A DNA stretch of 64,000 bases, from the NCBI GenBank assembly GCA_003142795.1, contig PLNN01000024.1:1078-65077 (forward strand). The letters run 5' to 3'. Positions 1-42,009 of the stretch are shown piece by piece. Source of the stretch: Candidatus Omnitrophota bacterium (GTDB lineage Bacteria; Omnitrophota; Gorgyraeia; 2-01-FULL-45-10). Made by a program: the position numbers and the translations under genes. How positions within the stretch are numbered: the first letter of the stretch is position 1; every line of letters begins with the position of its first letter. The notes beneath the pieces are model-generated. The model saw only the letters and a list, made by a program, of their open reading frames with translations, searched no databases and had not been told where the DNA came from.

Positions 1-567
1 GAAACAAATATAAGGTCGTCTGAGACAGGCGAAACGACAGGGCACACGCTCCCGGGGTTTTCCAGGCACGCCTTATTCTTGGCGCATGAAGTCGCGCTTT
101 TGACTATATTTGCGTCTATGTCCAATTTTTCTTTTTTAGGTTTGGTGTTTTCCGGCATATTTATTTCCTCTTACGTTTATTATTATTACTCAACCCCTCT
201 TCAGACAGTATCTTTTTGCATACTTCAGCCATGCATTTTTTACGTAAGACCGCGTCTTTTTCAAGGGTTGTCCAGAATGCCCTTGCCACTCTTCCCATAG
301 ACAAGTCAAGACCGGTTTGCGAGCGGACAGACCGGGTCGTCCTATCTATTATAGATTTTATCCGGCCGTTTATGCGGTACGAAGTCTTTAGCAGATGCTT
401 TGAGTCATTATTCATAATATTAAAAATGCGGATATTTGAGAGGTGCGTCTATATGTTAGGTTAAAAAGTTAGCTGGGTCAAGAACTATTTTGTCGGACAT
501 TGGATGAGGCCACAACTTACGGAAGGCCTTAAATTTGATAATTATTGACATTAAATTTTGAAGTATT

Positions 568-1284
568 ATGATATTCGATATGGCATTACACAATATAATC
601 CGCACGATCTCCAAATCAGGGCTATGTTCTCGGAAACAGGCGCTCTTACTCGTCCAAGAGGGTAAGGTCAGGGTAGGCGGGAAGGTAATCCTTGACCCTG
701 GACTTAAAGTGGACCATCCCGGCAAAATAACGGTCAATGGGAAACCTCTTGGCCAAAAAGCCAAGAGGTATATAATCCTGAACAAGCCTGCCGGATACGT
801 CACTACGCGCGTTGATGAGCTTAAGCGCCCTACGGTATATGAGTTCCTTAAAGATGTAAATGATTGGGTGTTTCCGGTAGGCAGACTTGATCTGGATTCC
901 GAAGGCCTTTTGATATTTACGAACGATACGAGATTCGGCGATGTCCTGACTGACCCTAAGTATGGGATCGAACGCACCTACGAAGTGCTTGTAGAGGGAT
1001 CCTTGCGAAGCGAGGATGTAAGGCATATCCTGAAAGGCGTAGATATAGGCTGCGGAGAAATAGCAAAACCAGTGCATTTAAAGGTCCTTGCCGCAAAAGA
1101 AGGATGCGCGCTTATCGAGATAACCCTTAGTGAAGGTAAGAACAGGGAGATAAGGCGCCTTTTCGAGTGCCTTGGGAAGCCTGTGAAGCAGCTAAAGCGA
1201 ATTAAATATGGCCCATTCAAGCTAGGGGCTATAAAGCCGGGCAAATGGGTCGAGATAAAAGACGCGCCCTCGAAGCTTCGATGA
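568..1284 (+). CDS. rRNA pseudouridine synthase (RsuA/RluB family), N-terminal S4-like RNA-binding domain
   Basis: 238 aa. Contains the VGRLDLDSEGLLIFTND motif that holds the catalytic Asp of the RsuA/RluB family, and an S4-like N-terminus (ICSRKQALLLVQEGKVRVGGK). Confidence 0.85.
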   Translation: MIFDMALHNIIRTISKSGLCSRKQALLLVQEGKVRVGGKVILDPGLKVDHPGKITVNGKPLGQKAKRYIILNKPAGYVTTRVDELKRPTVYEFLKDVNDWVFPVGRLDLDSEGLLIFTNDTRFGDVLTDPKYGIERTYEVLVEGSLRSEDVRHILKGVDIGCGEIAKPVHLKVLAAKEGCALIEITLSEGKNREIRRLFECLGKPVKQLKRIKYGPFKLGAIKPGKWVEIKDAPSKLR

Positions 1285-1381
1285 ATTTTCTTTAAAATCC
1301 TGATAATTATGATATAATATTATATGTAAATAAATATAAGGGGTCACGATGACCATTATAACTACAGATTGACGTATTGTC

Positions 1382-1415
1382 GAAGCTCTCGCAATAAGCG
1401 GGAGCTTTTCTATTT
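1382..1415 (+). terminator. Rho-independent terminator after the pseudouridine synthase gene
   Basis: GAAGCTCTCGC / GCGGGAGCTTT stem (about 10 bp, one G-U pair) followed by TTTTCTATTT. Confidence 0.5.
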
Positions 1416-1427
1416 GTAATATTAACT

Positions 1428-1790
1428 ATGGAGGTGGTTATGAAAAAGATCATGATGTTGATAGTGTTTTTAGCGGTGTTGGTGTGGAGCGTTTCCGGCT
1501 ATTGTCAGCCTTCGGGTCAAGCGGGAACTGGTAGCAGCGGCAGCAGCGTAGGAGACACAGGTAACGCGAGCAGCGCCGGGCAGGAAGCCCCGCCTTCAGC
1601 TCAAACTGGAAGCATGGGCAGCGCCAGCCAGGAATCCTCAGCAGTGAGCGAGTCTTCCAATAGATCTGACGCCATTGAGGATAACGCCCAGCAAGGGAGA
1701 GAGCAGTCTGAGAGTAATATAAATCATATGGAAGATCAGATGGCCTCTCACAGTACGTCGCAAAAAGAGGTTGATAAGATAGGCCGTTGA
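1428..1790 (+). CDS. secreted low-complexity protein (signal peptide, Ser/Gly/Ala-rich, acidic C-terminus)
   Basis: N-terminal hydrophobic signal MKKIMMLIVFLAVLVWSVSG, then SGSSGSS/ASSAG repeats. GGAGG ribosome-binding site upstream. Confidence 0.45.
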   Translation: MEVVMKKIMMLIVFLAVLVWSVSGYCQPSGQAGTGSSGSSVGDTGNASSAGQEAPPSAQTGSMGSASQESSAVSESSNRSDAIEDNAQQGREQSESNINHMEDQMASHSTSQKEVDKIGR

Positions 1791-1817
1791 AGCAGTCTGA
1801 TATTTTAGGAGATATTT

Positions 1818-2090
1818 ATGGCGGAGATTAAAGTCGAAAAGTTAGGGCGCGATGCGCTTGAGAAGATGGGTGTGTTCAAGTGGCCGGTATGGACTAAGGA
1901 AGTGTCGAAATTCGATTGGACCTATGACTCTGTCGAGCGCTGCTATTTTCTCGAGGGACAGGTTACGGTGAGTTGCAAAGGAGGCAAGGCGGTAAGTTTT
2001 GGGAAGGGTGATTTTGTGACGTTTCCGAATGGGCTAAGCTGTGTTTGGGATGTCAAGCAGGCGGTGAGGAAGCACTATCAGTTTGAGTAG
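1818..2090 (+). CDS. small cupin-fold protein (DUF861-like)
   Basis: 90 aa. The pattern GDFVTFPNGLSCVWDV resembles single-domain cupins. Confidence 0.55.
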   Translation: MAEIKVEKLGRDALEKMGVFKWPVWTKEVSKFDWTYDSVERCYFLEGQVTVSCKGGKAVSFGKGDFVTFPNGLSCVWDVKQAVRKHYQFE

Positions 2091-2098
2091 CGAAAATA

Positions 2099-2143
2099 GG
2101 GACTGTCCCCGGACTGGGGCTTGACTAAGGTGGGGACTGTCCC
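2099..2143. repeat. REP-like palindrome doublet (GGGACTGTCCC x2)
   Basis: gggactgtcccc...ggggactgtccc sits directly 3' of the cupin gene. The same GGGGAC/GTCCCC core recurs across the island. Confidence 0.4.
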
Positions 2144-2311
2144 AATTTTCGCTCGTGGTAGAATGTGCTGCGTCGAGTGGTTCGCAGGGACGCTCAATTT
2201 TGGACCATGCCAAAATTTTCGCTCGAAAAACTTGCTCGGACGCTGCCTCGCAAGTTTTCACGCCCTGCTCACCACATCGCCACATCACATTCCTGACGTA
2301 GCGAAAAATTT
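2144..2311. repeat. MITE-like / sRNA-like repeated element, copy A (terminal inverted repeat AATTTTCGC...GCGAAAAATT)
   Basis: About 90 % identical to 22161-22336. Termini are inverted repeats and the interior is strongly palindromic. It has no ORF. Confidence 0.5.
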
Positions 2312-2349
2312 AGCCATTATTGTTCGAGCGAGCAATTATTTAACTCTTG

Positions 2350-2380
2350 CGAGTCGAGAACTTCTCGACTCGGGATTTTT
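2350..2380 (+). terminator. Rho-independent terminator just downstream of MITE-like copy A
   Basis: CGAGTCGAG aactt CTCGACTCG perfect 9-bp stem followed by GGATTTTT. Confidence 0.5.
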
Positions 2381-2471
2381 CGTCAACGGGGCGGTGGCTG
2401 GTTCACTGACCGAGTGAGGCTGGTGCGTGATTGAATAGAGTGAGACGAACATTTTAAATAACGGAGGGGAC

Positions 2472-3152
2472 ATGAAAAATAAATTAATCGTATTATCTAT
2501 TTTATTAGGTTTACTGTTTCCCTCAACTCGAAATGCATATTCAGAAACTGCTCCAAGGCCTGCCTCCGACATAACAGTAATTTCGTTCAAGATCGAACAG
2601 CAGAAAGATACCTACCCTTATCCTGGCCCAATAGGGAGTAGCATAGATTCTATGGGCAACATTTATCGTAATAATGCCTATTTATGCGTTGATTTAAAAA
2701 ATAATAGCAATGCTTGGGAGTATGCCAACGTACCGTTAAGGATTTATTATTACGATAAAAATGATTTCAAGTTTTCAGAAGTGATAGTTAAAACTCCAAA
2801 TGGTGAAAAGATATCTTTGGGAGAAGAAAAGAAATTTAGAATATTTCTCGAAGGTTCAGAGTATCCCTATGAGCAAACAGTTGGTTTTAAATACAAGGTG
2901 ATCGTATCGCCTGAGGATATAAGGACAACCAGTGATTGGAGAAGCCTAAAGGTTGGTATGACCCAAGATGAAGTCCGCAAAATTTTGGGTGAACCCACGC
3001 ACATAGATGAGCCTGCTTCTGATAGCCCAACCTGGACATATTATGCAGGAGACTTGATCCCTTTATCAGGAAGCAGGGTATATTTTGGAACCATTGGGCC
3101 ATTATGGAATCAAAAGAAGTTGGTAGTAAAAAAATGGGAAGAGCCCCTGTAA
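2472..3152 (+). CDS. secreted protein with a C-terminal BamE/SmpA-OmlA-like domain
   Basis: Signal peptide MKNKLIVLSILLGLLFPSTRNAYS. The C-terminus has LKVGMTQDEVRKILGEP, typical of BamE-like domains. Its stop overlaps the start of the next gene (TAAATG), and the region is AT-rich. Confidence 0.45.
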   Translation: MKNKLIVLSILLGLLFPSTRNAYSETAPRPASDITVISFKIEQQKDTYPYPGPIGSSIDSMGNIYRNNAYLCVDLKNNSNAWEYANVPLRIYYYDKNDFKFSEVIVKTPNGEKISLGEEKKFRIFLEGSEYPYEQTVGFKYKVIVSPEDIRTTSDWRSLKVGMTQDEVRKILGEPTHIDEPASDSPTWTYYAGDLIPLSGSRVYFGTIGPLWNQKKLVVKKWEEPL

Positions 3153-3944
3153 ATGAATGTCAAATCAGTAAAGATGGAATTTAATACCATAAACGATGCA
3201 CGAAATTTAATTAAGGAGTTAGAATCTGAATCAAAAAAAGTTTTATTTAGAGGCCATTCTAATGCGGAATGGAAGCTACTGCCCTCGGTAGGAAGAAGTA
3301 ATAAGACCGTAATTGTTGAAAATAAGGAACTTGTTGAATTTAAGGCTACAGTCTTAGCGATATCAGAAAAGTATAAAGGCAACAAATATTTCCAAGAGTT
3401 TGGTTCGTCAGATTTTAGTTTATTTGCATTAGCGCAACATTACGAATTATTCCCTACACGGTTTCTTGATTGGACAGATCATGTATTAATTGCTCTGTTT
3501 TTCGCTAGTAATAATCATCCATCGTTAGATGGTTGTATTTGGATGTTTTCCGTGCCAGGTAATTCTAACCCCTGTTGGCGGATATCCGAAAGAAATGACG
3601 ACCCTTTAGCGTATGAGCAGTTAAAAATATTTTTTGTGCCATTCTTTATAGACGAATGGAGAGAGAAAATAGAAAATAAAACCTTTGGCAATCGGCGTCC
3701 ACAAGTACAGCGGTCCATAATGACCATCCATCCTAAAATAGAGAACAATTATAAGAGTTTGAACGAATTAATTGCTGGGGAAATGCTTTCTCAAATTAAA
3801 ATTCCAGCTCAAAGCAAGGAGAGTATTTTAAAAATTCTGTCCGAGGAATACTTCATTAATGCGGACACCATTTTAAATGGGAAAACTGCTCTAGACATAA
3901 AAAGTGAACAGGCTTGGAAAGATATCTTGCAGAAAAATATATGA
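3153..3944 (+). CDS. FRG-domain protein
   Basis: The N-terminal VLFRGHSNAEWKLLPSVGRS matches the FRG motif (F-R-G ... W.L.PS..R). 263 aa, translationally coupled to the upstream gene. Confidence 0.5.
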   Translation: MNVKSVKMEFNTINDARNLIKELESESKKVLFRGHSNAEWKLLPSVGRSNKTVIVENKELVEFKATVLAISEKYKGNKYFQEFGSSDFSLFALAQHYELFPTRFLDWTDHVLIALFFASNNHPSLDGCIWMFSVPGNSNPCWRISERNDDPLAYEQLKIFFVPFFIDEWREKIENKTFGNRRPQVQRSIMTIHPKIENNYKSLNELIAGEMLSQIKIPAQSKESILKILSEEYFINADTILNGKTALDIKSEQAWKDILQKNI

Positions 3945-3956
3945 ATTTGTAATAAC

Positions 3957-4011
3957 GGGGACGGTCCAGAAAGGGCCACCCCATGGGAGGGTACCAAAAG
4001 GACCGTCCCCA
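3957..4011. repeat. REP-like long hairpin (GGGGACGGTCC ... GGACCGTCCCC)
   Basis: 11-bp perfect inverted repeat with a loop of about 32 nt, lying between the FRG gene and the nuclease-domain gene. Confidence 0.45.
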
Positions 4012-4066
4012 GAAATTCATTAAAACGTGAAATAAAATATAAACCGAATAATTGGAAAACTAAACA

Positions 4067-5311
4067 ATGATAAATTCACAGGATGAACTATTGTTTCACG
4101 AAATAGATTTTCCAAATTTGCTCGGAGAAATGAAGAGAGGCCTTAATACAGAAATCTCGTCATTAAGTCGTGATCGAATGCTTAAAGAATCCGATGATGA
4201 TCTTTACGCTTTCTTTGTTGAAAAATACTCTCCCGTAGTCGCTGTATTACATGATGAACAAAAACATGTACTCCCTCCAAAGGATATTCGCATAGATGTT
4301 AGAGGTCGTTTTGATTACGCAATAGAGGATGAGAGGGCGCCTGCATTCGTCAAAGGAACTTTAATTACAATTGTAATTCCGTTTGAAGGCGACAGCCAAT
4401 ATTTTAAATTCCGGCCTTCAGCATATTCATTGTCCGGCGTTCGTGGTGATATTATTGATAATGAAGTGCATTTGAAATATTCGGGCCTCCCTCAAGACAT
4501 GAGTACAGAAGCTATAAAAACTAAAATGGAGCACGATATCAAACAGATAAAGGAATATTTAACACGATTGTCGCAAGAAACCGAAACTCATAATAAATAT
4601 GTAAAAGATGAAACACGAAAACTTCTTGATGCAAGAAGAAATGCGGTTCTGAAAGATGAATCATTAGTTGAGAGCCTCGGAATACCCATTAAGCGGCGGC
4701 CCGATGATAATTCAACTTTTACTATTCCAGTTGTAAGGAGGATGCCTGCGATTGAACAACATCACGATAAAACTCCTAAGCCAAGAGAGCCTATTTTACA
4801 AGAAGTAGAATATAACCACATTTTAGACTTGATTTCACGCATGGCTATTGTTATGGAGCGTAGCCCAAAAGCTTTTTACGAAATGGATGAGGAATCGATA
4901 AGATGGCAATTTTTAATTCCACTAAATAGCCATTATGAAGGCATGGCCTCAGGAGAAACGTTTAATTATTCTGGCAAAACAGATATACTTATTCGTTTTG
5001 AGGGCAAAAATGTGTTTATTGCCGAATGTAAAATTTGGCAAGGTGCAAAGGTATTTCTCGATACTATTGACCAAATTTTGAAATATACTAGCTGGCGCGA
5101 TACCAAAACTGCGATTATCTTGTTTAATAAAAATGAAAACTTTACATCAGTTCTTGCACAGATCCCGAATCTAGTTAAAACGCACCCATCTTTTGTATCT
5201 GATTTAGGAAAGCGAGACGAGACAATTTTTAAATTTATCCTTCATAACCCCGAGGATAAAGACAGAAAATTAATCATGACGGTTTTGGCATTTAACATTC
5301 CAAAAAAATAA
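4067..5311 (+). CDS. hypothetical protein with a C-terminal PD-(D/E)xK nuclease-like domain (Shedu/Mrr-like architecture; N-terminus unknown)
   Basis: 414 aa. The C-terminal motif GKTDILIRFEGKNVFIAECKIW reads as D-x(n)-E-x-K, the catalytic signature of the PD-(D/E)xK nuclease fold. AT-rich. Confidence 0.45.
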   Translation: MINSQDELLFHEIDFPNLLGEMKRGLNTEISSLSRDRMLKESDDDLYAFFVEKYSPVVAVLHDEQKHVLPPKDIRIDVRGRFDYAIEDERAPAFVKGTLITIVIPFEGDSQYFKFRPSAYSLSGVRGDIIDNEVHLKYSGLPQDMSTEAIKTKMEHDIKQIKEYLTRLSQETETHNKYVKDETRKLLDARRNAVLKDESLVESLGIPIKRRPDDNSTFTIPVVRRMPAIEQHHDKTPKPREPILQEVEYNHILDLISRMAIVMERSPKAFYEMDEESIRWQFLIPLNSHYEGMASGETFNYSGKTDILIRFEGKNVFIAECKIWQGAKVFLDTIDQILKYTSWRDTKTAIILFNKNENFTSVLAQIPNLVKTHPSFVSDLGKRDETIFKFILHNPEDKDRKLIMTVLAFNIPKK

Positions 5312-5401
5312 GGGATAACGGTGCTAGATTAATTGTGGGGACGGGGATGGAGGCGATCCCAGACCTGTTCCGGGACAAAAGATATAGGAGAGATAATGTA
5401 A

Positions 5402-5863
5402 ATGTGTCCTACGACTGGCTTGTTGCAATTGGTTCTCACTGGATTATTCCTCTTTCTCGTATTCCAGGTTATAAAGACGTATAATGCCGCTAAAACGAAT
5501 TTTGGGACACTTTCAGGATTGTTATCAACGCCGAAGACTAAATGGGGATATTTGTCTATCAGGCTTGAGGGGACTTATAAGGGCAGAAAGGCGGCATTGA
5601 ACTATTGGTTGGTGGGAGTTGAAGGGGGTTATCAAATAGACTTTTACATCGAACCGATAGGCGATTTAAAGAAACAAAAATTTATTTTTTTGAGTTATCC
5701 GAAGCCGACAGAAAACACTGTTTTAAGAGGAAAAAAGCTTCTCTATTCAGATCCCTATTTCCGCAATAGGCCGCATGAGATATATCCTGTTCAGAAATTT
5801 ACAGATATATTGGAAACGTTGACCCAGGCAGCCGGTATAGTGGAAAGTCAGGGGAGAAAATAG
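5402..5863 (+). CDS. hypothetical protein with an N-terminal transmembrane helix
   Basis: 153 aa with hydrophobic N-terminus LLQLVLTGLFLFLVF. No recognisable domain. Confidence 0.35.
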   Translation: MCPTTGLLQLVLTGLFLFLVFQVIKTYNAAKTNFGTLSGLLSTPKTKWGYLSIRLEGTYKGRKAALNYWLVGVEGGYQIDFYIEPIGDLKKQKFIFLSYPKPTENTVLRGKKLLYSDPYFRNRPHEIYPVQKFTDILETLTQAAGIVESQGRK

Positions 5864-5887
5864 CGAGTTTATGGAATTTGGAATTCA

Positions 5888-5900
5888 GGGGACGTTCCCC
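5888..5900. repeat. REP-like palindrome GGGGACGTTCCCC (left flank of the transposase)
   Basis: This is the exact inverted copy of GGGGAACGTCCCC at 6647-6659 on the other side of the Y1 transposase gene. Confidence 0.5.
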
Positions 5901-6047
5901 AAGGCGACAGACTGTTAGATTGTAACGCATTGTAAACAAAGATGTTGTAACTGCGTTAAGAAATATTTTAAAATAATTGCAATAATTTTCCTCTTTTTAT
6001 CGTCTATATATATGAGAAGCATATAGACTGAAAAAGGAGGATTTTTT

Positions 6048-6635
6048 ATGTCAAGACAAGCCCGCTTATTGGAAGATGGCGGCTATTATCACATCATTAC
6101 CCGTGGTAATGATCGCAAGCGGATATTCCGATCTGACCCTGATTTCATCTATTTTTTAAAACTTGTCAAAGAAGCCCTGGGAAAGAAGAGTATTAATATT
6201 CATCACTATTGCCTGATGAATAATCATCTGCATTTTCTGATAAGCGTTATTGATTCAAGGCTAGCGCCGAAGTTCTTCCAAAACATATTTCAGCGATATG
6301 CCTATTATTTCCGTAAACGTTACCGGCATGTAGGCTATCTATTTCAAAATAGGTATAAAAGCTATCCGATCGAAAAGGATGGCTACTTATTGGAATGCGG
6401 CCGATATATCGAAAGAAACCCTTTAAGGGCAGGCATTGTTAAAGATGCGGTGGATTATCGATGGTCCAGTTATTTACATTATGCCTGTGGCAAAAAAGAT
6501 GATATAATATTATCAAATCCTGCGTACATAGAATTATCACAGGATGATGATGAGCGTAAGCGTTTATATAGGGAATACATTCTTCAGGAAAGACCTTACG
6601 AACATCTTGTAGATAAAGGACTTAGGGTCGGGTAG
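6048..6635 (+). CDS. HUH/Y1 transposase, IS200-like / REP-associated tyrosine transposase (RAYT)-like
   Basis: 195 aa. N-terminal YHIITRGNDR, the HUH motif NNHLHFLI, the Tyr motif GYLFQNRYKSY, and the C-terminal NPLRAGIV...YRWSSY typical of IS200-like/RAYT proteins. Confidence 0.75.
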   Translation: MSRQARLLEDGGYYHIITRGNDRKRIFRSDPDFIYFLKLVKEALGKKSINIHHYCLMNNHLHFLISVIDSRLAPKFFQNIFQRYAYYFRKRYRHVGYLFQNRYKSYPIEKDGYLLECGRYIERNPLRAGIVKDAVDYRWSSYLHYACGKKDDIILSNPAYIELSQDDDERKRLYREYILQERPYEHLVDKGLRVG

Positions 6636-6638
6636 TGT

Positions 6639-6659
6639 GTCCCCGCGGGGAACGTCCCC
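6639..6659. repeat. REP-like palindrome GTCCCCGCGGGGAACGTCCCC (right flank of the transposase)
   Basis: Contains GGGGAACGTCCCC, the reverse complement of the left-flank copy, plus a nested CCCCGCGGGG palindrome. Confidence 0.5.
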
Positions 6660-6686
6660 GATAGTGAATAACTAACTAGGAGAATT

Positions 6687-6938
6687 ATGCGTAAATTTGT
6701 TATGGTTTTAGCGCTGATCGTGGGACTGTCTATTACGGTTTACGCCGCCGATGAGAAGAAAGTTAAAGGCATAGAGGTGGTGCCGGAAACAGTAACCGCC
6801 GTGGTTGATAAGACAAACGCATTATTGTCGGGCAAGCTGGAATTTACGATGACGGAAGATAGGTCCAAATATAATAAAAAATATACAGTGAACGCCCTCG
6901 GAAATAAAGTCCCGGCTTCAACTGTTACGAAAAATTGA
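6687..6938 (+). CDS. small secreted protein
   Basis: Signal peptide MRKFVMVLALIVGLSITVYAADEK, with an AGGAG ribosome-binding site. Confidence 0.4.
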   Translation: MRKFVMVLALIVGLSITVYAADEKKVKGIEVVPETVTAVVDKTNALLSGKLEFTMTEDRSKYNKKYTVNALGNKVPASTVTKN

Positions 6939-6958
6939 AAACGTTTAAATATGGAATC

Positions 6959-6992
6959 TGGGGACGGGCCATTTGGGGACACGCGGCGGAGG
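6959..6992. repeat. REP-like GGGGAC cluster containing the 21-mer TTTGGGGACACGCGGCGGAGG
   Basis: ggggacgggccatttggggacacgcggcggagg. The same 21-mer recurs at about 8232-8252. Confidence 0.4.
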
Positions 6993-7039
6993 GGGATGCG
7001 CCGAAGCAGGACGTTTACACAATGTCTGGGGCGACTGTA

Positions 7040-7434
7040 TGAAAATTGCGTTTAATGTTTTAGTTTTTATGTGCATATTTCTTTCTTTGGGGTTAACGGG
7101 ATGTCAAAATTCCGATCTTAAGGATCCGTACGAGATAAATGTAATCAAGGCAAAGACGCTTCCGCTAGGTATTCCAAAGGGCATGCTAATACCAGAAATG
7201 AGAGGTGCGCCTTTACAATCCTCTGGTTTTACGAAAGATGAAAAATATGAGATCATTTATTTTAAAACACCCCCCATCAATTCTGAGAATGTAGGCGTGC
7301 TTGTTGAAGTGAGTAGCCAACAAGTTGTAGGATTTCGGGTTTACGAGTGGGTATATAGAGCGCTTGATCAATATGTGGACGTAGTGCGAAAAGAATTTAA
7401 TATGACCTCAGATAAAGCACAACGGTTGCCATAG
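7040..7434 (+). CDS. lipoprotein (lipobox LTGC)
   Basis: The internal start MKIAFNVLVFMCIFLSLGLTGCQN gives a signal peptide plus lipobox. The track ORF begins upstream at 6973 with a glycine-rich unlikely N-terminus. Confidence 0.5.
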
Positions 7435-7480
7435 CAAAATAAGTCAAAGGAGTAAGAACCAGGATAGAAGGGACGAATAA

Positions 7481-7639
7481 ATGAAAAAATGTAAAAGGTG
7501 CGGGGTGCCGATGGAGGGGTTCATGTATAAGTGGGTGGCGGCGAAGCTATTTGGCGTAAAACCATCCGGGAAGAATGCGGATCTGTGCAATAAGTGCGAG
7601 GACAAGCCGGAGAAAACTTGGGGGTGCTGTAAATAAAAT
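7481..7639 (+). CDS. small zinc-ribbon protein (CxxC...CxxC, 52 aa)
   Basis: MKKCKRCGVPMEG...CNKCEDKPEKTWGCCK. Sits in an intergenic gap on the + strand and is below the ORF-track length cutoff. Confidence 0.3.
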
Positions 7640-7704
7640 TCGGGGATATGGGTCCTTGACAAGGTTCATCACTTATGATACACTTATAGCAGGAGGTGAA
7701 TGAT

Positions 7705-7935
7705 ATGGCTACAAAGATGCCGAGACTCAATGTGGTGCTTGAACCACCGATGTATTTTGCCATTGTCAGTATGGCCAAAAAGGAAGGGATATCTCTTTCC
7801 CTGAAAGCCCGTGATCTCATACGGGAAGCGTTGGATTTCTGCGAAGATAGCTTTTGGACTAAAGAAGCGAACAAAAGAGAAAGAACATTCAGCCGCAAAA
7901 GAGCGCTTTCCCATAAAAAGGTTTGGGGTAAGTGA
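7705..7935 (+). CDS. type II antitoxin, ribbon-helix-helix-like
   Basis: The ATG at ~7705 is preceded by AGGAGG. MATKMPRLNVVLEPPMYFAIVSMAKKEGISL has a beta-strand then helices. Its stop overlaps the toxin's start codon. Confidence 0.55.
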   Translation: MATKMPRLNVVLEPPMYFAIVSMAKKEGISLSLKARDLIREALDFCEDSFWTKEANKRERTFSRKRALSHKKVWGK

Positions 7936-8210
7936 TGAAGTATAGTTTGATCTATCATCCCGACGTATACGGTGAAGATATTAAGAATATTCCCGCCAAC
8001 ATAAAAAAGCGTATACGCAATGCTATCGAAACGCGCCTTCAGAACGATCCAATACTTTACGGTAAACCTTTGCGTCAAAGCCTCAAAGGGCATAGGCGGC
8101 TTCGCGTCGGCGATTGGCGTGTCATTTATAGAGTAGAAGCACATGAAGTTGTAATTCTCAGGATAGGGCACCGGAAAGAGATCTATAACAAGCCTCCCCG
8201 AAGATTCTGA
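7935..8210 (+). CDS. relE: type II toxin, RelE/ParE family
   Basis: LRVGDWRVIYRVEAHEVVILRIGHRKEIY matches the RelE/ParE C-terminal motif. About 91 aa, overlapping the antitoxin stop. Confidence 0.75.
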   Translation: MKYSLIYHPDVYGEDIKNIPANIKKRIRNAIETRLQNDPILYGKPLRQSLKGHRRLRVGDWRVIYRVEAHEVVILRIGHRKEIYNKPPRRF

Positions 8211-8220
8211 TAGGAAATCC

Positions 8221-8253
8221 GGGGGGCGGGAGTTTTGGGGACACGCGGCGGAG
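8221..8253. repeat. REP-like GGGG cluster containing the 21-mer TTTGGGGACACGCGGCGGAGG
   Basis: Exact 21-nt match to 6972-6992, immediately upstream of the start codon of the 8257 gene. Confidence 0.4.
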
Positions 8254-8256
8254 GAT

Positions 8257-8652
8257 ATGATGGATAAGAAGAAGCTGATAAAGAATATCGTGTGGATCAT
8301 TGCCATAGCGGTGTACGTGTGGTTATTTGTGTCGCTTGAGCCGTGGCGGATAAATGTTAAGGAATTGATGAGCGGATGGGGTCTATTTACCTTGCTTATC
8401 ATCATCACTATGCCGGGGCTTATCGTATCATGTATAGGCATGATCCTGGGCAAGAAGGGGTTCGGTAAGGCATTCGTGATATTCAATGGTATCTATTTGG
8501 TATGCGGGGCTTATATGGTATACTTTGCATGGACTTTTTACATATTTAAGGTCCCAACGCTGATGGAACGGCTCGCAAGCACGCGATCCAGTATATTGTT
8601 CGGCATCCTTATGCCGTTAGTCCTTTTTTATTATCTGGAAAGAACTAAATGA
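8257..8652 (+). CDS. integral membrane protein (about 4 transmembrane helices)
   Basis: 131 aa with hydrophobic segments IVWIIAIAVYVWLFV, LFTLLIIITMPGLIVSCIGMIL and FVIFNGIYLVCGAYMVYFAW. Confidence 0.45.
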   Translation: MMDKKKLIKNIVWIIAIAVYVWLFVSLEPWRINVKELMSGWGLFTLLIIITMPGLIVSCIGMILGKKGFGKAFVIFNGIYLVCGAYMVYFAWTFYIFKVPTLMERLASTRSSILFGILMPLVLFYYLERTK

Positions 8653-9386
8653 TCAAGAGTGTTGTACGGGCAGAAGCGGCAAAGAGGGCGTTGAGGAAAT
8701 ACGGAGATAAAGAAAAAGCAAGACTTCTTAAGCGGTACTTTAAGACAGGGCCGGGTGAATACGCGGAAGGGGATGTTTTTATCGGCGTTAACGTGCCGAT
8801 AGTCAGAAAGCTGGCGAAACGGTTCGAGGATCTGGGCCTCGCAGAGAATGTCAGATTATTGAAATCGTCGATACATGAAGAACGATTGCTTTCGCTTTTA
8901 ATTTTTGTTTCGAAGTTTTCGCGCTCGGACAACGATCGCAAAAAAGAGATATACGATATATATCTGAAGCACACCGGGTATATAAACAACTGGGATCTTG
9001 TCGACGTTACGGCCAAACGTATTGTCGGTGCATACTTGATGGATAAAAACAAGTCACCATTATACAGGCTGGCTAGATCGAGATCGGTATGGGAGAGAAG
9101 GATCTCGATATTATCGACGTTCCATTTTATCGATAGACGTGAATTTAGTGATGCGCTGAAGATAGCCGAAATGCTATTGTCCGACCGGCAGGACCTGATC
9201 CATAAAGCGGTGGGCTGGATGCTCAGGGAGGTCGGTAAGAAAGACGTTGCCGCGGAAGAAGGATTTTTACAAAAACATTGCGCAATAATGCCGCGGACAA
9301 TGTTGCGCTATGCCATTGAACGATTTCCTGAAAGGAAACGGCGCGGTTATTTAATTAATAGATATATAACCGGAGGTATAAAATGA
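8649..9386 (+). CDS. DNA alkylation repair protein (AlkD/AlkC-like HEAT-repeat glycosylase family)
   Basis: 245 aa. Motifs NNWDLVDVTA, WERRISILSTFHFI and HKAVGWMLREVGK are characteristic of the DNA_alkylation family. Confidence 0.65.
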   Translation: MIKSVVRAEAAKRALRKYGDKEKARLLKRYFKTGPGEYAEGDVFIGVNVPIVRKLAKRFEDLGLAENVRLLKSSIHEERLLSLLIFVSKFSRSDNDRKKEIYDIYLKHTGYINNWDLVDVTAKRIVGAYLMDKNKSPLYRLARSRSVWERRISILSTFHFIDRREFSDALKIAEMLLSDRQDLIHKAVGWMLREVGKKDVAAEEGFLQKHCAIMPRTMLRYAIERFPERKRRGYLINRYITGGIK

Positions 9387-21008: not shown

Positions 21009-22162
21009 AGAAAATATTTTATACAGTTTTGGCGCTCACATTACTCAGTTCTTTTGTTTTGGGCCCTCTGGTTTGGGCGGATGGTTCGGATACCGTGATG
21101 AGGGTGCTGATAATAGATGATAAGCCGTCCGTTTTTCTGGCGCTGAAAGGAAAATACAAAATATCCGAGATAAATTCGGGCAGGATTTTGATGGAGGGCC
21201 CGTACCTTGACGCCCAGATCGCCGGAACAAAAACAGGTCTTCGTATCGGAAATAAAGAGTCAAACGTCTACGGCTTCAAGGTCAAAGTATTACGCGATTC
21301 GAATATTTATGTCGATGGAAGAAGATTTAGGGGCGATATCGATATCATAAGAAAAGATAATTTGAAACTTGAGGTGATAAATTACATAGGTCTGGATGAT
21401 TATCTTTACGGAGTATTATATCATGAGGTTTCGCATCGCTGGCCCCTGGAAGTTTTAAAAGCACAGGCGATCGCGGCAAGGACGTTCGCCCTGTATCAGG
21501 CTAAACAGAATAAATCTCAACCCTACGATCTCCGGAGCGACATATATTCCCAGGTTTACGGAGGAAGAACGTCGGAGAAGTGGTCGACTACGCATGCCGT
21601 CGATGTTACAAGGGGGAGGGTATTGGCGTATAACGGGGACATCCTGCCGGCATATTATCACGCTACATGCGCCGGTTTTACCGAAGATGCCGTAAATCTC
21701 TGGAATGTGGACCTGCCGCCCCTAAAAGGCGTGAGCTGTAATTTTTGCGTGTATTCTCCGCATTATAAGTGGACCAAAAATATCGCTCTCTGGGACCTGG
21801 CGCGTAAGTTAAAAGACGCTAATTATAAAATAGATAAAATAGCGTCTGTGAATATTTTGTCAAAGAATAGGTCCGGGAGGGTGGACAAACTGGAAATAAA
21901 AGATGATACCGGGGTGGCCATAGTGCTGACCGGGAAAGATTTCAGGCAGATGATGGGCCCAAATGAGCTGCGCAGCACTAAGTTCGATTCTTCGATAAAA
22001 GGGAATAATCTGGTCCTTTCCGGTTTCGGCTGGGGACATGGCGTAGGCATGTGCCAGTGGGGGGCCTTCGAGATGGCCAAGCAGGGCAAAAAGGCGGAAG
22101 AGATCCTCCAGTATTACTATCCCGGCGCTGAGATCACAACTATCGATAAGGTGAAGCAGTAA
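21005..22162 (+). CDS. SpoIID/LytB-domain protein
   Basis: Signal peptide MKKIFYTVLALTLLSS. The C-terminal motifs AQAIAARTFALYQ and AYYHATCAG are characteristic of SpoIID/LytB. Confidence 0.75.
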   Translation: MKKIFYTVLALTLLSSFVLGPLVWADGSDTVMRVLIIDDKPSVFLALKGKYKISEINSGRILMEGPYLDAQIAGTKTGLRIGNKESNVYGFKVKVLRDSNIYVDGRRFRGDIDIIRKDNLKLEVINYIGLDDYLYGVLYHEVSHRWPLEVLKAQAIAARTFALYQAKQNKSQPYDLRSDIYSQVYGGRTSEKWSTTHAVDVTRGRVLAYNGDILPAYYHATCAGFTEDAVNLWNVDLPPLKGVSCNFCVYSPHYKWTKNIALWDLARKLKDANYKIDKIASVNILSKNRSGRVDKLEIKDDTGVAIVLTGKDFRQMMGPNELRSTKFDSSIKGNNLVLSGFGWGHGVGMCQWGAFEMAKQGKKAEEILQYYYPGAEITTIDKVKQ

Positions 22163-22336
22163 AATTTTTCGATGCCCGTGGTAGAATGTGCTGTGTCGAG
22201 TGGTTCGCAGGGACGCTCAATTTTGGACCATGCCAAAATTTTCGCTCGGAAAACTTGCGCGAACGCTGTCGCGCAAGTTTTAACGCCTGAGCTCACCACA
22301 TCGCCACATCACATTCCTGGGGATGTGAAAAATTTT
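22161..22336. repeat. MITE-like / sRNA-like repeated element, copy B
   Basis: About 90 % identical to 2144-2311. Starts on the TAA stop of the SpoIID-like gene (TAAAATTTTTCG) and ends GTGAAAAATTTT. Confidence 0.5.
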
Positions 22337-22368
22337 CATTTTGCAAAGACAAGGTCAGCTAAGAAGAT

Positions 22369-22938
22369 ATGAAGCAGAGACACATAAAAAAAGACGAGAT
22401 TTTTCGAATTTATCAAGCAACAGGCATTAATTATTTACGTTTTTTAATTCCAACTGTAATAACTATTTGCTTGTTAAGTAGTTACATTTATATAGGCCAA
22501 GGAATAAAAAAAGATTTTTTTACAACTTTTCTTATAAGTACACTTTTGCTTTTTGGATATGGCACGTATAAAACTTTGGTTTGCCCGCAACCTCTTATTT
22601 GGGGTACAAAACATGGCTTGTGGTTAAATATTGTTCCGTTTAACAAAGGTTATTTCGTTCCCTGGGTAGATCTTTATTCGGCTGAGTCTGATCAAATAGT
22701 GCATCGATATAGTAAGTATGATTTACTTGCGAAGTCTAGTCCGCCCCTAAAAATATTAGGAACAATGCAAGACGACCGTTTATTAAAGATACAGTTAGCA
22801 TTAAACAGTATGTCGGGATTGCCGATTTTCCGCAAAAATGTTATTATGTGCGACAAAGAAACTCTATGGTTTCGTGTCGCAGGAGATATTATTAATCACG
22901 TGAACGAAATTAAGAGGTATAGAGATTTAGCGAGATAG
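22369..22938 (+). CDS. hypothetical membrane protein on a very AT-rich, probably foreign segment
   Basis: 189 aa with 3 hydrophobic helices. Roughly one-third GC against about 48 % for the neighbours. Confidence 0.4.
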   Translation: MKQRHIKKDEIFRIYQATGINYLRFLIPTVITICLLSSYIYIGQGIKKDFFTTFLISTLLLFGYGTYKTLVCPQPLIWGTKHGLWLNIVPFNKGYFVPWVDLYSAESDQIVHRYSKYDLLAKSSPPLKILGTMQDDRLLKIQLALNSMSGLPIFRKNVIMCDKETLWFRVAGDIINHVNEIKRYRDLAR

Positions 22939-23338
22939 GTATATAGCAGCGCCTCGTATAAAAATATTTCTAACCTGGTTAGATTTGGCAGGTTAGTAGA
23001 CCTAATCCGAAGTTATGTGAGCACAACGAAAATTTTAGGCTGACGAATTTTAATTAAGACACGCGCGTGGCTTGACGCAGATTGTGTCTGGGGTTGATAA
23101 AAGTATCAAGATATTCATGTAGCTGTTAAATGGCCGACTGGCCATGGGGGTTGAGCCGAATAGATTTTGCGACCATATGCTCTACCACTAAACTATATAT
23201 AGAAGAGTTACCATCACAGTAAAGTATAAAAGTTTTAATTAAGTAAAGACTAAAAATTCATGAGAGCAAAATCCGGCGAAGCCCCCTGGCCTGGCGGCCA
23301 TTTATGGGAGAAGGCGAAAAATTTCAAAATGAGAGACC

Positions 23339-39924: not shown

Positions 39925-41511
39925 ATGTTTATGAAGGTTGCGTTTGCAGTGATTTTAGTAGTGATGCTGGCTGTGCCGGCATATTCGCAAGAGCTATGGG
40001 TCGGAAAAGACGGCAATATCCGCAATGTCGATTCGCGCGCTATGGTCTCGGACGGGAACCTGCTTTATCTTGCGACACGCAATGAAGTATACAAAGGTAC
40101 CGCCGGAAATGAAAAATGGGAGTCGATATTCTCCCTTGCGGCCGGCGATAATGAAGTAACGTGCCTTACCGGGAGGGGGAAGAACATACTTATAGGGACG
40201 AAGCGGGGGATATTCCGTTCCGAAGGCGGCGGGAAGGCATGGCGAAACGTCTTCAGGACGCTTTTCGCGGATAAGAGCAATATAATTTCGCTCGATACCT
40301 CTAAATATGATCTTAAGAAGGTTGCTGCGGTGACCGCAAAGGGCATATTCCTAAGTTACGATCTTGGCGAACATTGGAAAGACATAAGCGGAAATTTAAA
40401 AAATAAAAGCCTCCATTGTATCGCGCTTAATAAAGAGCTTATCTACGTCGGCGGCGAAGACGGCCTGTATGTTAAAAAAGAAGATTCTGATGCATGGGAG
40501 CGTATATGCGCGAGGTCAACGCCTGAGAGGCCCGAGGGTGAGGAAAGCGAAGAGCCCGCTGAGGAACCGGAATATAGAGGAGCGGTAAATTGTATCGCGG
40601 TTAAAGGTGCGAGCGTATATATCGGTATTGACGAAAAGATATTATACTCCGAGACCGGCGGTAAGGATTGGCGCGACTTTGAACGCCAGGGTCTGGGCGG
40701 CGTGATCAATGATATCATCATATCCAAAAAGGAAGATAAGCTGTATTGTGCTACGAGTAAAGGGGTATTTGAGTTCGACAAGGAGACATCCCGATGGCGC
40801 GAGCTATATAAAGGTATGGACAGGATCCGGGCGGTGAATGATATTGAGCTTGCCGGAGAGGAAGGAAGGTCGCTCTGGGCTTTAACGGAAAAAGGCGTAT
40901 ATAAATTCGAGCCCGGGAAATATACGGGAAACCAGTATACCGATATCGAAAATAGTCTTAAGACATTCAAGATAATCTTTGATGGCGAGCCAACCTACAC
41001 GCAGCTTGCGAAGGCTGCGATGAAATTTAACGAGGTAAGTCCCGATAAAATAGCGAAATGGAGAAAAGCCGCGCAGGTCAGGGCGCTCATGCCGAAAGTG
41101 TCGCTCGGCATGGACAAGCACCAGTCGACCAATTATGAGATATATACCAGCGCGACAAGAGATTATGTGACCAGCGGCCCGGACGATATCTATAATGCCC
41201 TGAATTTCTCAGTATCATGGGACCTGTCTAACCTCATATGGTCGGACGACCAGACTAATATAGACGTGCGCTCGCGTCTTACCACTCAGCTGAGGAATGA
41301 CATTCTCGATGATCTGAGGCGGACATACTATGAGCGCAAAAGGCTGCAGTTCGAGATCATGCAATCACCACCGCAAGACCAACGGTTGCTATTCGAAAAA
41401 CAGATGCGTATACGGGAATTGACCCAGGAGATAGATGACTTGACGGGAAATTACCTTACTGAAAATATGCGAAAGAATACCGATAAGGCGCTATTGGACG
41501 GTCGCGAGTAA
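39925..41511 (+). CDS. secreted beta-propeller (BNR/Ycf48-like repeats) protein with a C-terminal coiled coil
   Basis: The ATG at about 39925 follows GGGAGGA and gives signal peptide MFMKVAFAVILVVMLAVPAYSQ. Contains repeated G-G-K-x-W motifs. Confidence 0.5.
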   Translation: MFMKVAFAVILVVMLAVPAYSQELWVGKDGNIRNVDSRAMVSDGNLLYLATRNEVYKGTAGNEKWESIFSLAAGDNEVTCLTGRGKNILIGTKRGIFRSEGGGKAWRNVFRTLFADKSNIISLDTSKYDLKKVAAVTAKGIFLSYDLGEHWKDISGNLKNKSLHCIALNKELIYVGGEDGLYVKKEDSDAWERICARSTPERPEGEESEEPAEEPEYRGAVNCIAVKGASVYIGIDEKILYSETGGKDWRDFERQGLGGVINDIIISKKEDKLYCATSKGVFEFDKETSRWRELYKGMDRIRAVNDIELAGEEGRSLWALTEKGVYKFEPGKYTGNQYTDIENSLKTFKIIFDGEPTYTQLAKAAMKFNEVSPDKIAKWRKAAQVRALMPKVSLGMDKHQSTNYEIYTSATRDYVTSGPDDIYNALNFSVSWDLSNLIWSDDQTNIDVRSRLTTQLRNDILDDLRRTYYERKRLQFEIMQSPPQDQRLLFEKQMRIRELTQEIDDLTGNYLTENMRKNTDKALLDGRE

Positions 41512-41820
41512 TGCGTCTACCTCTGAAGGTTTTATGCGGGTAAATTCTATTCCGGCGTCTATCATGGGACTATATGTGGCAAGGCCTTCATTGACCCACC
41601 TTACCTTTCCTATTGCTTCAACGGTATTATCTTTTTCGGGATGGGATATTTTAATACGCAGGGTGTGCCCTTTTTTTATAATGCGCGATACCAGGATGCG
41701 CAGGCCGCCTTTTGAGATATCCTTAGCTATTGTAGAGCCTTCTATCGAAGCTATGCCATTTGTAGCATAGCATACCTTGAGCGAGCAATCGTAGCGGGGG
41801 AACCTTCTCCGTTCTTCCAT
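41491..41820 (-). CDS. PilZ-domain protein (c-di-GMP binding)
   Basis: RRFPR...DISKGG matches the RxxxR / DxSxGG PilZ motifs. 109 aa. This is the only clear minus-strand gene in the window. Confidence 0.75.
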   Translation of the reverse strand: MEERRRFPRYDCSLKVCYATNGIASIEGSTIAKDISKGGLRILVSRIIKKGHTLRIKISHPEKDNTVEAIGKVRWVNEGLATYSPMIDAGIEFTRIKPSEVDALLATVQ

Positions 41821-42009
41821 GTTACCTCACCTTTTATATTGAAAGTATAGCATAAAATTTCAAAAATGGTAGAGGGTAAAAAGTCCGTATAATTTTTTTT
41901 CAGGATCTATTTTTTTATCCCGACGGAAAATTTGGTTTTTCTTGTCCCGTTAGGAATCAAAAAATCTGGCTTTCTTTCTACTGTCTTAACAAAAATTGAA
42001 ACTTTTCTC

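Follow-up and report, generated by a model that had tools for sequence, protein, structure and literature searches.

The window analysed here comprises 64,000 nucleotides of contig PLNN01000024.1 from a Candidatus Omnitrophota bacterium. It carries three open reading frames on the plus strand at positions 2472–3152, 3153–3944 and 4067–5311, as described in an earlier note on this DNA. They encode an exported BamE-like protein (ORF1, 226 aa), an FRG-domain protein (ORF2, 263 aa) and a 414-aa protein with a C-terminal PD-(D/E)xK nuclease domain (ORF3). The GC content of the segment from 2472 to 6635 is 0.375 compared to 0.476 in the rest of the window, and GC3 is 0.30–0.35 versus 0.52–0.62 in the housekeeping genes upstream. 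The segment, AT-rich as claimed before, is a compositionally foreign island with REP/RAYT elements and a toxin-antitoxin pair as neighbours.

At the left boundary of the low-GC island lies a REP-like hairpin (2089–2153; arms of 22 nt, 91% complementary, including GGGACTGTCCCC). It is followed by an intrinsic-terminator-like hairpin at 2350–2372 (plus strand; 10-bp stem with 6 GC pairs and a subsequent T-run), which suggests that the BamE-like gene opens a new transcription unit. The FRG and the 414-aa genes are separated by 122 bp with a 54 nt REP-like palindrome (GGGGACGGTCC...GGACCGTCCCC; 3957–4010), in line with the hairpin-containing gap of about 120 bp noted earlier. Apart from this palindrome, no strong terminator was found between the three genes. 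Further downstream lies ORF4 (5402–5863, plus strand), encoding 153 aa with an N-terminal hydrophobic segment. ORF4 has no family match in Pfam, NCBIfam, PADLOC or PHROGs, is absent from every other locus surveyed for the family of the 414-aa protein (PDC-S54, see below), and is a passenger of the island. The REP-like repeats, the Y1 transposase and the RelE-type toxin-antitoxin pair listed in the earlier note were all found. The Y1 (IS200-like) tyrosine transposase (195 aa, 6048–6635, plus strand; Pfam Y1_Tnp, 3.3e-14) is located between inverted REP-like arms at 5888–5913 (26 nt, 85% complementary) and 6634–6659, the latter being the right edge of the low-GC island. This is the arrangement of a RAYT; with 63.8 bits the NCBIfam model REP_Tyr_transpos stays under its threshold of 80, so equivalog status is lacking for this RAYT-like protein. 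The type II toxin-antitoxin pair (7696–8210, plus strand) consists of a putative antitoxin of 79 aa (7696–7935) that overlaps a ParE/RelE-superfamily toxin of 92 aa (7932–8210; Pfam ParE_toxin, 1.2e-12). An Rfam scan of positions 1–9000 gave zero matches, and no tRNA or tmRNA gene is present in the window, so that a tRNA-linked integration site is absent here. NCBIfam gave zero matches for ORF1 to ORF4, and a PHROGs search returned only families of unknown function.

ORF1 has a Sec-type signal peptide (MKNKLIVLSILLGLLFPSTRNAYS followed by E) and a BamE-like C-terminal segment. The Pfam BamE match (E = 1.6e-6, 28.2 bits, cut-off 23.2) is restricted to residues 152–190 and to profile positions 5–41 of the 71 in PF04355, about half of the domain. 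The description as a secreted BamE-like protein is correct with regard to export and Pfam match, but the match is partial and a lipobox cysteine is absent. ORF1 shares this domain with the outer-membrane assembly lipoprotein BamE (SmpA/OmlA), from which it differs by the half-domain match, the missing lipobox cysteine, about 125 additional N-terminal aa, the foreign GC content of the island, and a very small, lineage-restricted family (5 clusters in a word search). It is not a BamE orthologue. The possibility that ORF1 is a core gene followed by a hotspot for insertions was rejected because of its island-like low GC and an upstream flank that is different in each context.

The stop codon of ORF1 was said to overlap the start of ORF2; in fact both directly adjoin (TAA/ATG). 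Three homologues of the FRG protein begin at the residue aligned with M8, so the real start may be the ATG at 3174, resulting in a protein of 256 aa. The Pfam FRG model (PF08867) matches residues 29–122 with E = 3.7e-18 and 66.7 bits (cut-off 25), which bears out the FRG assignment made from the motif FRGHSNAEWKLLPSVGRS. Within this motif the (F/Y)RG signature corresponds to F32-R33-G34, and R33 and G34 are invariant in 9 FRG homologues. Further invariant residues are P44, R48, Q95, T102-R103, D106-W107, R182, Q186 and H193. In PADLOC, 13 models of PDC-S15 match the protein (best E = 3.8e-33). The window protein belongs to a small subfamily (9 clusters in a word search) in which about 120 additional C-terminal aa are conserved, and its gene differs from PDC-S15 and Pfam FRG by the abutting gene for an exported BamE-like protein. 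The FRG protein has no signal peptide and is accordingly expected in the cytoplasm. A putative ADP-ribosyltransferase (ART)-like fold is ascribed to it; its structural neighbours are toxins of the ART fold, and the Aravind lab (PMC9503650) assigned FRG to the ADP-ribosyltransferase superfamily. NADase or ART chemistry is most likely for this protein, for which enzymatic activity is predicted. In the literature, PDC-S15 and PF08867 appear in defence-system inventories only, and FRG is just a prediction.

The 414-aa protein consists of three parts. Residues 1–205 (4067–4681) form an N-terminal domain in which a 56-residue helix (147–202) comes after an alpha/beta unit. Residues 206–244 (4682–4798) form a linker that is predicted to be disordered, with pLDDT below 50 at residues 216–237; G205, P207, T217, P221, E241 and P242 in the linker region are near-invariant. 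Residues 245–414 together with the stop codon (4799–5311) constitute the PD-(D/E)xK nuclease domain, the putative effector. The D...E-x-K motif (TDILIRF...IAECKIW) was recognised before, and its residues D306 (codon 4982–4984), E320 (5024–5026) and K322 (5030–5032) are invariant in 57 homologues, as are E275/E276 and Q336...Y340 in the same domain. D306 is located in strand 305–311 and E320-C-K322 in strand 314–323 (beta2/beta3), and the domain shows the alpha-beta-beta-beta-alpha-beta fold of restriction endonucleases. The N-terminal 300 aa had been regarded as a region without a family; this region is now divided into a domain of about 205 aa, a linker of about 40 aa and the beginning of the nuclease domain at about residue 245, and the protein matches PDC-S54 over its full length (residues 6–413 versus profile positions 4–408 of 410, E = 8.3e-136). 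With the same protein length and the same single-gene behaviour, it shows no family-level difference from PDC-S54. This family comprises 3,995 or more clusters (90% identity). It is present in no fewer than 512 species genomes, which span numerous phyla of bacteria and archaea, and was also seen on 23 plasmids, in 2 phage records and on 5 IMG/VR contigs. Between phyla, homologues share 40–45% identity, and the catalytic and linker motifs are near-invariant. PDC-S54 has neither a Pfam nor an NCBIfam model, no solved structure and no mention in the literature. Neither the single proteins nor the family profile matched the sequence of a solved structure, and Foldseek with the whole 414-aa model returned nothing from the PDB at E < 0.05.

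PADLOC classifies PDC-S15 and PDC-S54 as single-gene candidates, so that neither component is unrecognised. The view of the earlier note that FRG and PD-(D/E)xK proteins are defence-type components fits the flagging of both families as phage-defence candidates. Both come from 145 candidates that Payne et al. (preprint 10.1101/2024.01.29.577857) derived from BREX, DISARM and type I R-M loci by "guilt-by-embedding".

HMM searches for DUF4263/Shedu, Mrr_cat and DUF1837, proposed as checks in the earlier note, gave no match to the 414-aa protein. Shedu (SduA, DUF4263) is a single protein with a variable N-terminal domain and a C-terminal PD-(D/E)xK nuclease, encoded by a stand-alone gene in defence islands. 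The 414-aa protein follows the same design logic (a single polypeptide in which a regulatory or sensing domain precedes the PD-(D/E)xK effector at the C-terminus) but gave no DUF4263 match in Pfam (E up to 0.1) or PADLOC (E up to 1). No HMM match was seen for Hachiman HamA (DUF1837 with adjacent HamB helicase), and no Pfam match for Mrr-like type IV restriction enzymes (Mrr_cat, E up to 0.1). In structure, the catalytic domain is most similar to type II restriction endonucleases of the BamHI/OkrAI/BstYI/BglII group. Sequence identity to these enzymes is only 9–12%, and the 414-aa protein differs from them by the additional N-terminal region of 245 aa, the lack of a methyltransferase partner and the conservation of its family across phyla. 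No methyltransferase gene is present in the island, and none is a conserved neighbour in the surveyed loci.

A search with the N-domain alone retrieved 1,242 representatives, all of which carry it at the N-terminus. Among these matches, at least 7 have a TIR C-terminus and 1 has a Swt1-like HEPN domain; for such fusions PADLOC reports PDC-S54 (for the N-domain) together with PDC-S66/ThsB-like or PDC-M34B. These sister proteins share the N-domain with the 414-aa protein and differ in carrying an effector other than the nuclease. One of these sister proteins, P0148, is 37% identical over residues 7–207 (E = 2.8e-30) and matches positions 5–236 of the PDC-S54 profile. The odd C-terminal tails of P0209, P0179, P0184, P0193, P0215 and P0212 are rich in Arg, Ser and Pro and dissimilar to each other, and were discarded as frameshift junk. 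The N-domain itself has no match to known folds, DNA readers or modified-base readers. Since it is also fused to TIR or HEPN domains, it represents a putative sensor or regulatory module, and judging from this architecture it probably has a role in sensing.

Gene neighbourhoods were surveyed in species-representative genomes by crude ORF calling in flanks of ±8 kb, and FRG genes at PDC-S54 loci were searched by phmmer and by a profile HMM built from 9 FRG sequences. At none of the 84 other PDC-S54 loci (about 80 of them independent) was an FRG gene detected within ±8 kb of the homologue of the 414-aa gene. Clustering of the neighbours gave no cluster that is present in more than 6 of the approximately 80 independent loci. 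The immediate neighbours are mixed and include S and M subunits of type I R-M systems, NYN and MADS genes, integrases and, at many loci, ordinary housekeeping genes. The two nearest homologues (74–75% identity) sit in R-M/CBASS/integrase islands, and the genes preceding them are unrelated to FRG and to one another. The 253–269-aa genes upstream of the closest homologues were also considered as divergent FRG genes and dismissed (BLASTP E ≥ 0.3, mutually unrelated).

The FRG gene gave a corresponding picture. Next to its orthologues with 76% and 62% identity, the genes on either side are different ones, and homology of the orthologue loci to the window ends at the FRG stop codon. No BamE-like gene was found upstream of the orthologues with 76%, 62% and 36% identity, and no PDC-S54 gene beside any of those examined. 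Such variable flanks characterise a stand-alone gene, as PADLOC models PDC-S15. The combination of all three genes is restricted to the window and one identical metagenome contig. The BamE-like and FRG genes are adjacent in two of four BamE-like contexts, the window and locus L090. The two genes of L090 overlap; identity to the window proteins is 64% for the BamE-like protein and, across its full length, 33% for the FRG protein (E = 3e-41). The upstream flank there is the 3′ end of a tRNA-Ser gene and not the cupin gene and REP element of the window. In the other two contexts a gene for a secreted PLD/Nuc-like protein or unknown genes occupy the downstream slot. A metagenome scan for BamE-like loci added one locus only, so the statistics on this adjacency are thin.

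How do these data relate to the proposal of the earlier note, according to which the BamE-like, FRG and nuclease-domain proteins form one new cooperating multi-gene conflict or defence system? The common strand, the common foreign GC content, the abutting of the first two genes, the short distance of 122 bp to the third, and the lack of a strong terminator other than the REP palindrome would all be compatible with such a system. However, the combination recurs nowhere except in an identical contig, the FRG gene is missing at all of the about 80 independent PDC-S54 loci, the FRG orthologues examined have no PDC-S54 neighbour, PADLOC models both families as single genes, and a REP element lies between the FRG and 414-aa genes. 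The neighbourhood data largely rule out the three-gene system, which we regard as very improbable. A smaller unit, in which the BamE-like and FRG genes are a true two-gene cassette, one encoding an exported partner and the other a cytoplasmic effector of the ART fold, with the 414-aa gene as unrelated neighbour, is unlikely. The adjacency is repeated in L090 despite the different upstream flank, and with families of no more than 5 and 9 clusters it is unlikely to have arisen twice by chance; the island-like GC content of both genes also fits. Nevertheless, two BamE-like contexts carry other downstream genes, the closest FRG orthologues lack the upstream gene, the pair could stem from common ancestry within one narrow lineage, and there is no obvious route by which an exported protein and a cytoplasmic enzyme would interact. 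That such a cassette couples a cell-envelope event to an NAD+-dependent internal response, with PDC-S54 as a second, independent layer, has a still lower probability.

With respect to the 414-aa protein, the structural similarity to the BamHI/OkrAI/BstYI/BglII group and the R-M systems beside the nearest homologues are consistent with a solitary restriction-type enzyme (type IV, modification-dependent, or orphan type II-like) whose N-domain reads DNA. We consider this quite unlikely, since no methyltransferase is a conserved neighbour, the N-domain matches no known reader of DNA or modified bases and also occurs on TIR and HEPN effectors that need no positioning on DNA, and the cross-phylum identity with near-invariant motifs is unlike fast-diverging specificity domains. 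A restriction-type enzyme would still have a defence function. Some observations point away from defence: PDC-S54 and PDC-S15 are catalogued as candidates only, a toxin-antitoxin pair and a transposase are located nearby, and the ART and PD-(D/E)xK folds are also found in toxins (RES, Rhs, CdiA-CT), which are present among the structural matches. None of the genes would then be defensive. A mobile islet would carry them as selfish or addiction cargo (toxin-like ART, nuclease), or they would be hitch-hikers with a housekeeping role. Neither gene is accompanied by a conserved cognate antitoxin or immunity gene, and the exchange of nuclease, TIR and HEPN domains on one N-domain as well as the location in R-M/CBASS/integrase islands are typical traits of immune proteins, so that a non-defensive role likewise appears quite improbable.

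The view that we favour, with good but not complete confidence, is that a small islet associated with REP/RAYT elements and acquired by horizontal transfer occupies the region from 2.1 to 6.7 kb and harbours two independent single-gene anti-phage candidates and no cooperating module. The proteins of both families, PDC-S54 and PDC-S15, are candidates for a function in defence; the housekeeping neighbours at many PDC-S54 loci count against this view. The 414-aa member of the widespread PDC-S54 family may act as a self-contained sensor-effector: the N-domain would probably detect an infection cue and promote oligomerisation, which would activate the C-terminal PD-(D/E)xK nuclease, leading to DNA cleavage and abortion of the infection. 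In the sister families the same N-domain is wired to a TIR (NADase) or HEPN (RNase) effector. The FRG protein (PDC-S15) would be a cytoplasmic enzyme of the ADP-ribosyltransferase fold that on infection most likely uses NAD+ or ADP-ribosylates a target. The exported BamE-like protein appears to be co-transcribed with it here and in one other genome, and is not a required partner.

The window contains two neighbouring single-gene candidates from an existing catalogue and does not qualify as a new system. If the pairing of BamE-like and FRG genes were a true one, prokaryotic immunity would gain a new design, in which a periplasmic component is functionally linked to a cytoplasmic ART/NADase effector. 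The family of the 414-aa protein is among the more widespread unstudied candidates, occurring in bacteria, in archaea and on plasmids. The association of its N-domain with nuclease, TIR and HEPN domains leads to the hypothesis that this conserved domain is a new sensor controlling suicide effectors that can be exchanged for one another, and D306, E320, K322 and the conserved linker motif are targets for mutagenesis. Validation of this hypothesis would extend the immune repertoire of prokaryotes by a new sensor domain.

The three ORFs of the segment are real, all lie on the plus strand, and their earlier description needs minor corrections only. ORF1 (2472-3152, 226 aa) encodes the BamE-like protein, ORF2 (3153-3944, 263 aa) the FRG protein, and ORF3 (4067-5311, 414 aa) a protein that carries the D...ExK motif as TDILIRF…IAECKIW. 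ORF3 matches PDC-S54, one of the single-gene phage defence candidate families of PADLOC-DB, end to end (E = 8.3e-136, residues 6-413 against profile positions 4-408 of 410) and is a bona fide member of this family. ORF2 matched 13 PDC-S15 models of the same database (best E = 3.8e-33) as well as Pfam FRG (E = 3.7e-18), with the motif quoted in the earlier note in place, and is a bona fide PDC-S15/FRG member. The segment is therefore best read as two catalogued single-gene defence candidates side by side, in a foreign, REP/RAYT-associated islet that adjoins a toxin-antitoxin pair. The view that ORF1, ORF2 and ORF3 make up one new conflict/defence module is not supported.

The preprint from which the PDC-S families derive lists 145 single-gene candidates, obtained as genes located inside BREX, DISARM or type I R-M loci, and calls them untested (10.1101/2024.01.29.577857). 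In our literature search PDC-S54 was mentioned in no paper and PDC-S15 in defence-system inventories only, and an experimental study of FRG was not found. ORF3 had no match in Pfam or NCBIfam. PHROGs gave only weak partial matches, all to families without an assigned function, and none of the solved structures matched by sequence, whether the query was the single protein or a 57-sequence profile. The 414-aa protein resembles Shedu in that one polypeptide combines an N-terminal regulatory domain with a C-terminal PD-(D/E)xK effector. Membership tests assigned it neither to Shedu nor to HamA, Mrr or type II R-M, and the checks against DUF4263/Shedu, Mrr_cat and DUF1837 suggested earlier did not place it in these families.

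Whether FRG genes recur next to genes for the 414-aa protein was followed in 80 genomic PDC-S54 loci and around the two nearest homologues, using simple ORF calling in species-representative genomes. These loci were searched in six frames by phmmer with the window protein and then with a 9-sequence FRG profile HMM. No FRG ORF was found within ±8 kb in the surveyed loci except in a metagenome copy identical to the window (L001). This copy was also the only surveyed locus with relatives of ORF1 or of ORF4 (5402-5863), a 153-aa ORF with a hydrophobic N-terminus located 90 bp 3′ of the 414-aa gene. ORF4 matched nothing in Pfam, NCBIfam, PADLOC or PHROGs. All-against-all clustering of the ORFs within ±4 kb gave no neighbour family present in more than 6 loci. 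Among 146 immediate neighbours from the bulk scan we found specificity or methylase subunits of type I R-M (5-6), NYN (5), MADS mad5 (4), integrases (3) and Fic (2); the remaining ones include many housekeeping enzymes.

Both nearest homologues (74-75% identity) are located in islands carrying an integrase. In one case the adjoining genes form a type I R-M system that has a PDC-S31 gene embedded in it; in the other they belong to CBASS and to a type III-like R-M system. In the island of the 75% homologue (L002, 1350-9245) the PDC-S31 gene (3.2e-38) has hsdS on one side and a split hsdR on the other. Next come an unknown gene of 269 aa and then the PDC-S54 homologue, and the island ends with the integrase beside smpB. 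The 253-269-aa genes preceding the two homologues were considered as FRG relatives, and BLASTP showed no relationship, either to FRG or between the two.

The FRG orthologues likewise have differing surroundings. A 76%-identical orthologue (L086) is flanked by other genes on both sides, and DNA homology to the window stops at the FRG stop codon; a 62%-identical one lies between genes for a PEGA-like protein and for riboflavin synthesis, and a 36%-identical one lacks an upstream partner. Together with the missing FRG genes in the surveyed PDC-S54 loci, this indicates that the pairing of FRG and PDC-S54 is peculiar to this island. The lack of co-occurrence elsewhere is the very outcome that the earlier note itself had set against its three-gene module. 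The gene downstream of the L086 orthologue (1094-2080) matches PADLOC models of the pAgo-associated SIR2-APAZ type (5e-11), so that this FRG gene is also found beside a defence-type gene.

ORF1 encodes a Sec-type signal peptide (…RNAYS/E), which is kept in 4 homologues, and lacks a lipobox cysteine. It scored above the cut-off for Pfam BamE, yet only residues 152-190 are covered. The family comprises 5 clusters (identity 58-100%), and 4 distinct gene contexts could be read, a very small sample. In the window, a cupin gene, a REP hairpin and a terminator precede the BamE-like gene (100%), and the FRG gene abuts it downstream. On contig L090 the BamE-like gene (64% identical to that of the window) follows an apparent 3′ half of a tRNA-Ser gene and overlaps a gene for a 301-aa FRG protein, which is 33% identical to the window FRG over the full length (E = 3e-41). 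A gene with 76-77% identity (P0131 / L091) stands between an upstream cluster for Hsp70-like, Ser/Thr kinase, FHA and RDD membrane proteins and a downstream PLD/Nuc-like gene that encodes its own signal peptide, and one with 58% (P0134) between a contig-terminal, truncated ORF of 60 aa and two unknown genes plus a PEGA protein.

An FRG gene thus adjoins the BamE-like gene in 2 of the latter's 4 contexts; counted for this FRG subfamily, the adjacency is seen in 2 out of about 5. This exceeds chance for two such small families, though it is obligate in neither direction. It could mean that both genes form a functional cassette, but it is not obvious how an exported protein could interact with an enzyme that lacks a signal peptide; we consider such a cassette improbable, a minor rival to the reading of two single-gene candidates side by side.

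On the metagenome contig L090 (1-120) the BamE-like/FRG pair is found about 95 bp 3′ of the apparent tRNA-Ser(GCU) 3′ half, which ends ...GGTTCGAATCCCAGCCTCTCCGCCA. ARAGORN did not call this tRNA gene, which is cut by the contig end; the remnant may mark a tRNA-linked insertion site. The cluster on L091 (1110-6906, same strand, upstream of the 77% BamE-like gene) was identified by eye from translations as Hsp70-like (835 aa), Ser/Thr kinase, FHA and a zinc-ribbon/RDD-like membrane protein, and the downstream signal-peptide-bearing PLD/Nuc-like protein matches PADLOC DrmC models (1.4e-10).

The stop of ORF1 had been described as overlapping the start of ORF2, but the junction reads TAA/ATG and the genes abut. 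In three FRG homologues (P0123, P0124, P0125) the first residue aligns with M8 of the window protein; judged from this alignment, the true start may be the ATG at 3174, 22 nt past the BamE-like stop and without abutment. Invariant polar residues in the FRG subfamily are R33, R48, Q95, T102-R103, D106, D126, R182, Q186 and H193. The Aravind lab assigned Frg to the ART superfamily and predicted an antiviral effector, possibly an NADase (PMC9503650). Our FRG reading appears to agree with this ART placement, the FRG model itself being weak.

The low GC content previously noted for the segment is confirmed: it amounts to 0.375 in the island (2472-6635) versus 0.476 in the remaining window, and GC3 to 0.30-0.35 inside the island versus 0.52-0.62 in the genes for pseudouridine synthase and cupin upstream of it. 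ORF1, too, is foreign in composition. The REP-like repeats, the Y1 transposase gene (6048-6635) and the RelE-type toxin-antitoxin pair (a ParE/RelE-type toxin and an overlapping upstream ORF, 7696-8210) could all be located as well. Palindromes of the GGGGAC-N-GTCCCC type occur 4 times in the 64-kb window versus a chance expectation of 0.06, and 4 of 4 lie at 2098-6659; the stretch of about 5 kb from 2089 to 6982 is the only part of the window that contains them. No intergenic gap of the island is free of REP-like palindromes, which cut the island into one-gene or two-gene blocks. Related elements are located at 2089-2153, 3957-4010 (a 54-nt palindrome in the 122 bp that separate ORF2 from ORF3) and 6957-6982, and an inverted pair (5888-5913 / 6634-6659) flanks the Y1 transposase gene in the classic REP/RAYT arrangement. 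A terminator-like hairpin (2350-2372) is present upstream of ORF1.

Two other low-GC patches (1-kb GC 0.37-0.41 versus a mean of 0.47) occur in the window. The one at 22000-22950 contains an orphan 189-aa membrane ORF (22369-22938) with SpoIID-like and QueA-like genes on either side, and the one at 41250-42000 a 109-aa minus-strand ORF (41491-41820) that lies upstream of a gene resembling polA; these names were assigned by eye from the translated sequences.

The PDC-S54-type family of the 414-aa protein is large: clustering at 90% identity gives at least 3,995 clusters, almost all of 405-420 aa and none annotated. Relatives were found in at least 512 genomes in a scan of one genome per species, distributed over Omnitrophota, Planctomycetota, Chloroflexota, Acidobacteriota, Proteobacteria, Cyanobacteria, Firmicutes, CPR and several archaeal phyla. 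Further members come from 23 plasmids, 2 phage records and 5 IMG/VR contigs. On the Paludisphaera borealis plasmid PALBO2 (NZ_CP019084.1, 7004-8227) a 37%-identical homologue, annotated as "hypothetical protein", is flanked by umuDC on one side and by a block with a PD-(D/E)XK nuclease family protein and a 2.9-kb DNA methyltransferase gene on the other; an S8 peptidase/ATP-binding protein pair and a MobF relaxase are encoded nearby.

The AlphaFold2 model of the 414-aa protein (57 sequences, mean pLDDT 83.7) consists of an N-terminal alpha/beta unit whose last element is a helix of 56 residues (147-202), a linker modelled with low confidence (216-237) and a C-terminal domain (245-414) with the order alpha-beta-beta-beta-alpha-beta. 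D306 (strand 305-311), E320 and K322 (strand 314-323), E275/E276, Y340 and W343-R344-D345-T346 are invariant in the alignment, and Q336 is nearly so. Foldseek with the whole model returned nothing significant, and no match explained the N-domain. The linker region (residues 204-244, window 4676-4798) is predicted to be disordered (pLDDT below 50), and L204, G205, P207, T217, P221, E241 and P242 within it are near-invariant across phyla. It may represent a conserved short linear motif, e.g., an autoinhibitory or docking site.

Searching 1.84 billion representative proteins with the N-domain alone (residues 1-208) gave 1,242 matches, in which it was N-terminal every time. The best 148 of these comprise 49 full-length family members, 68 C-terminally truncated fragments and 31 proteins with a non-nuclease tail. 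At least 7 of the 31 (359-376 aa) carry a TIR tail (Pfam TIR_2, E = 1e-19 to 1e-22; tails mutually 49-64% identical), and one carries a Swt1-like HEPN tail; other inspected tails look like frameshift artefacts. PADLOC assigned the N-domain of the variants to PDC-S54 and the C-terminus to PDC-S66/ThsB-like or PDC-M34B. The combination of one conserved N-domain with effectors that can be exchanged (DNase, NADase or RNase) is the hallmark of sensor-effector immune proteins. In the favoured reading of the 414-aa protein, the N-domain would detect an infection cue, the long helix would mediate oligomerisation, and this would switch on the nuclease, leading to degradation of DNA and abortion of the infection. 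The lasting value of the locus lies in the PDC-S54 family, with its wide spread and the effector swapping newly documented on a conserved N-domain.
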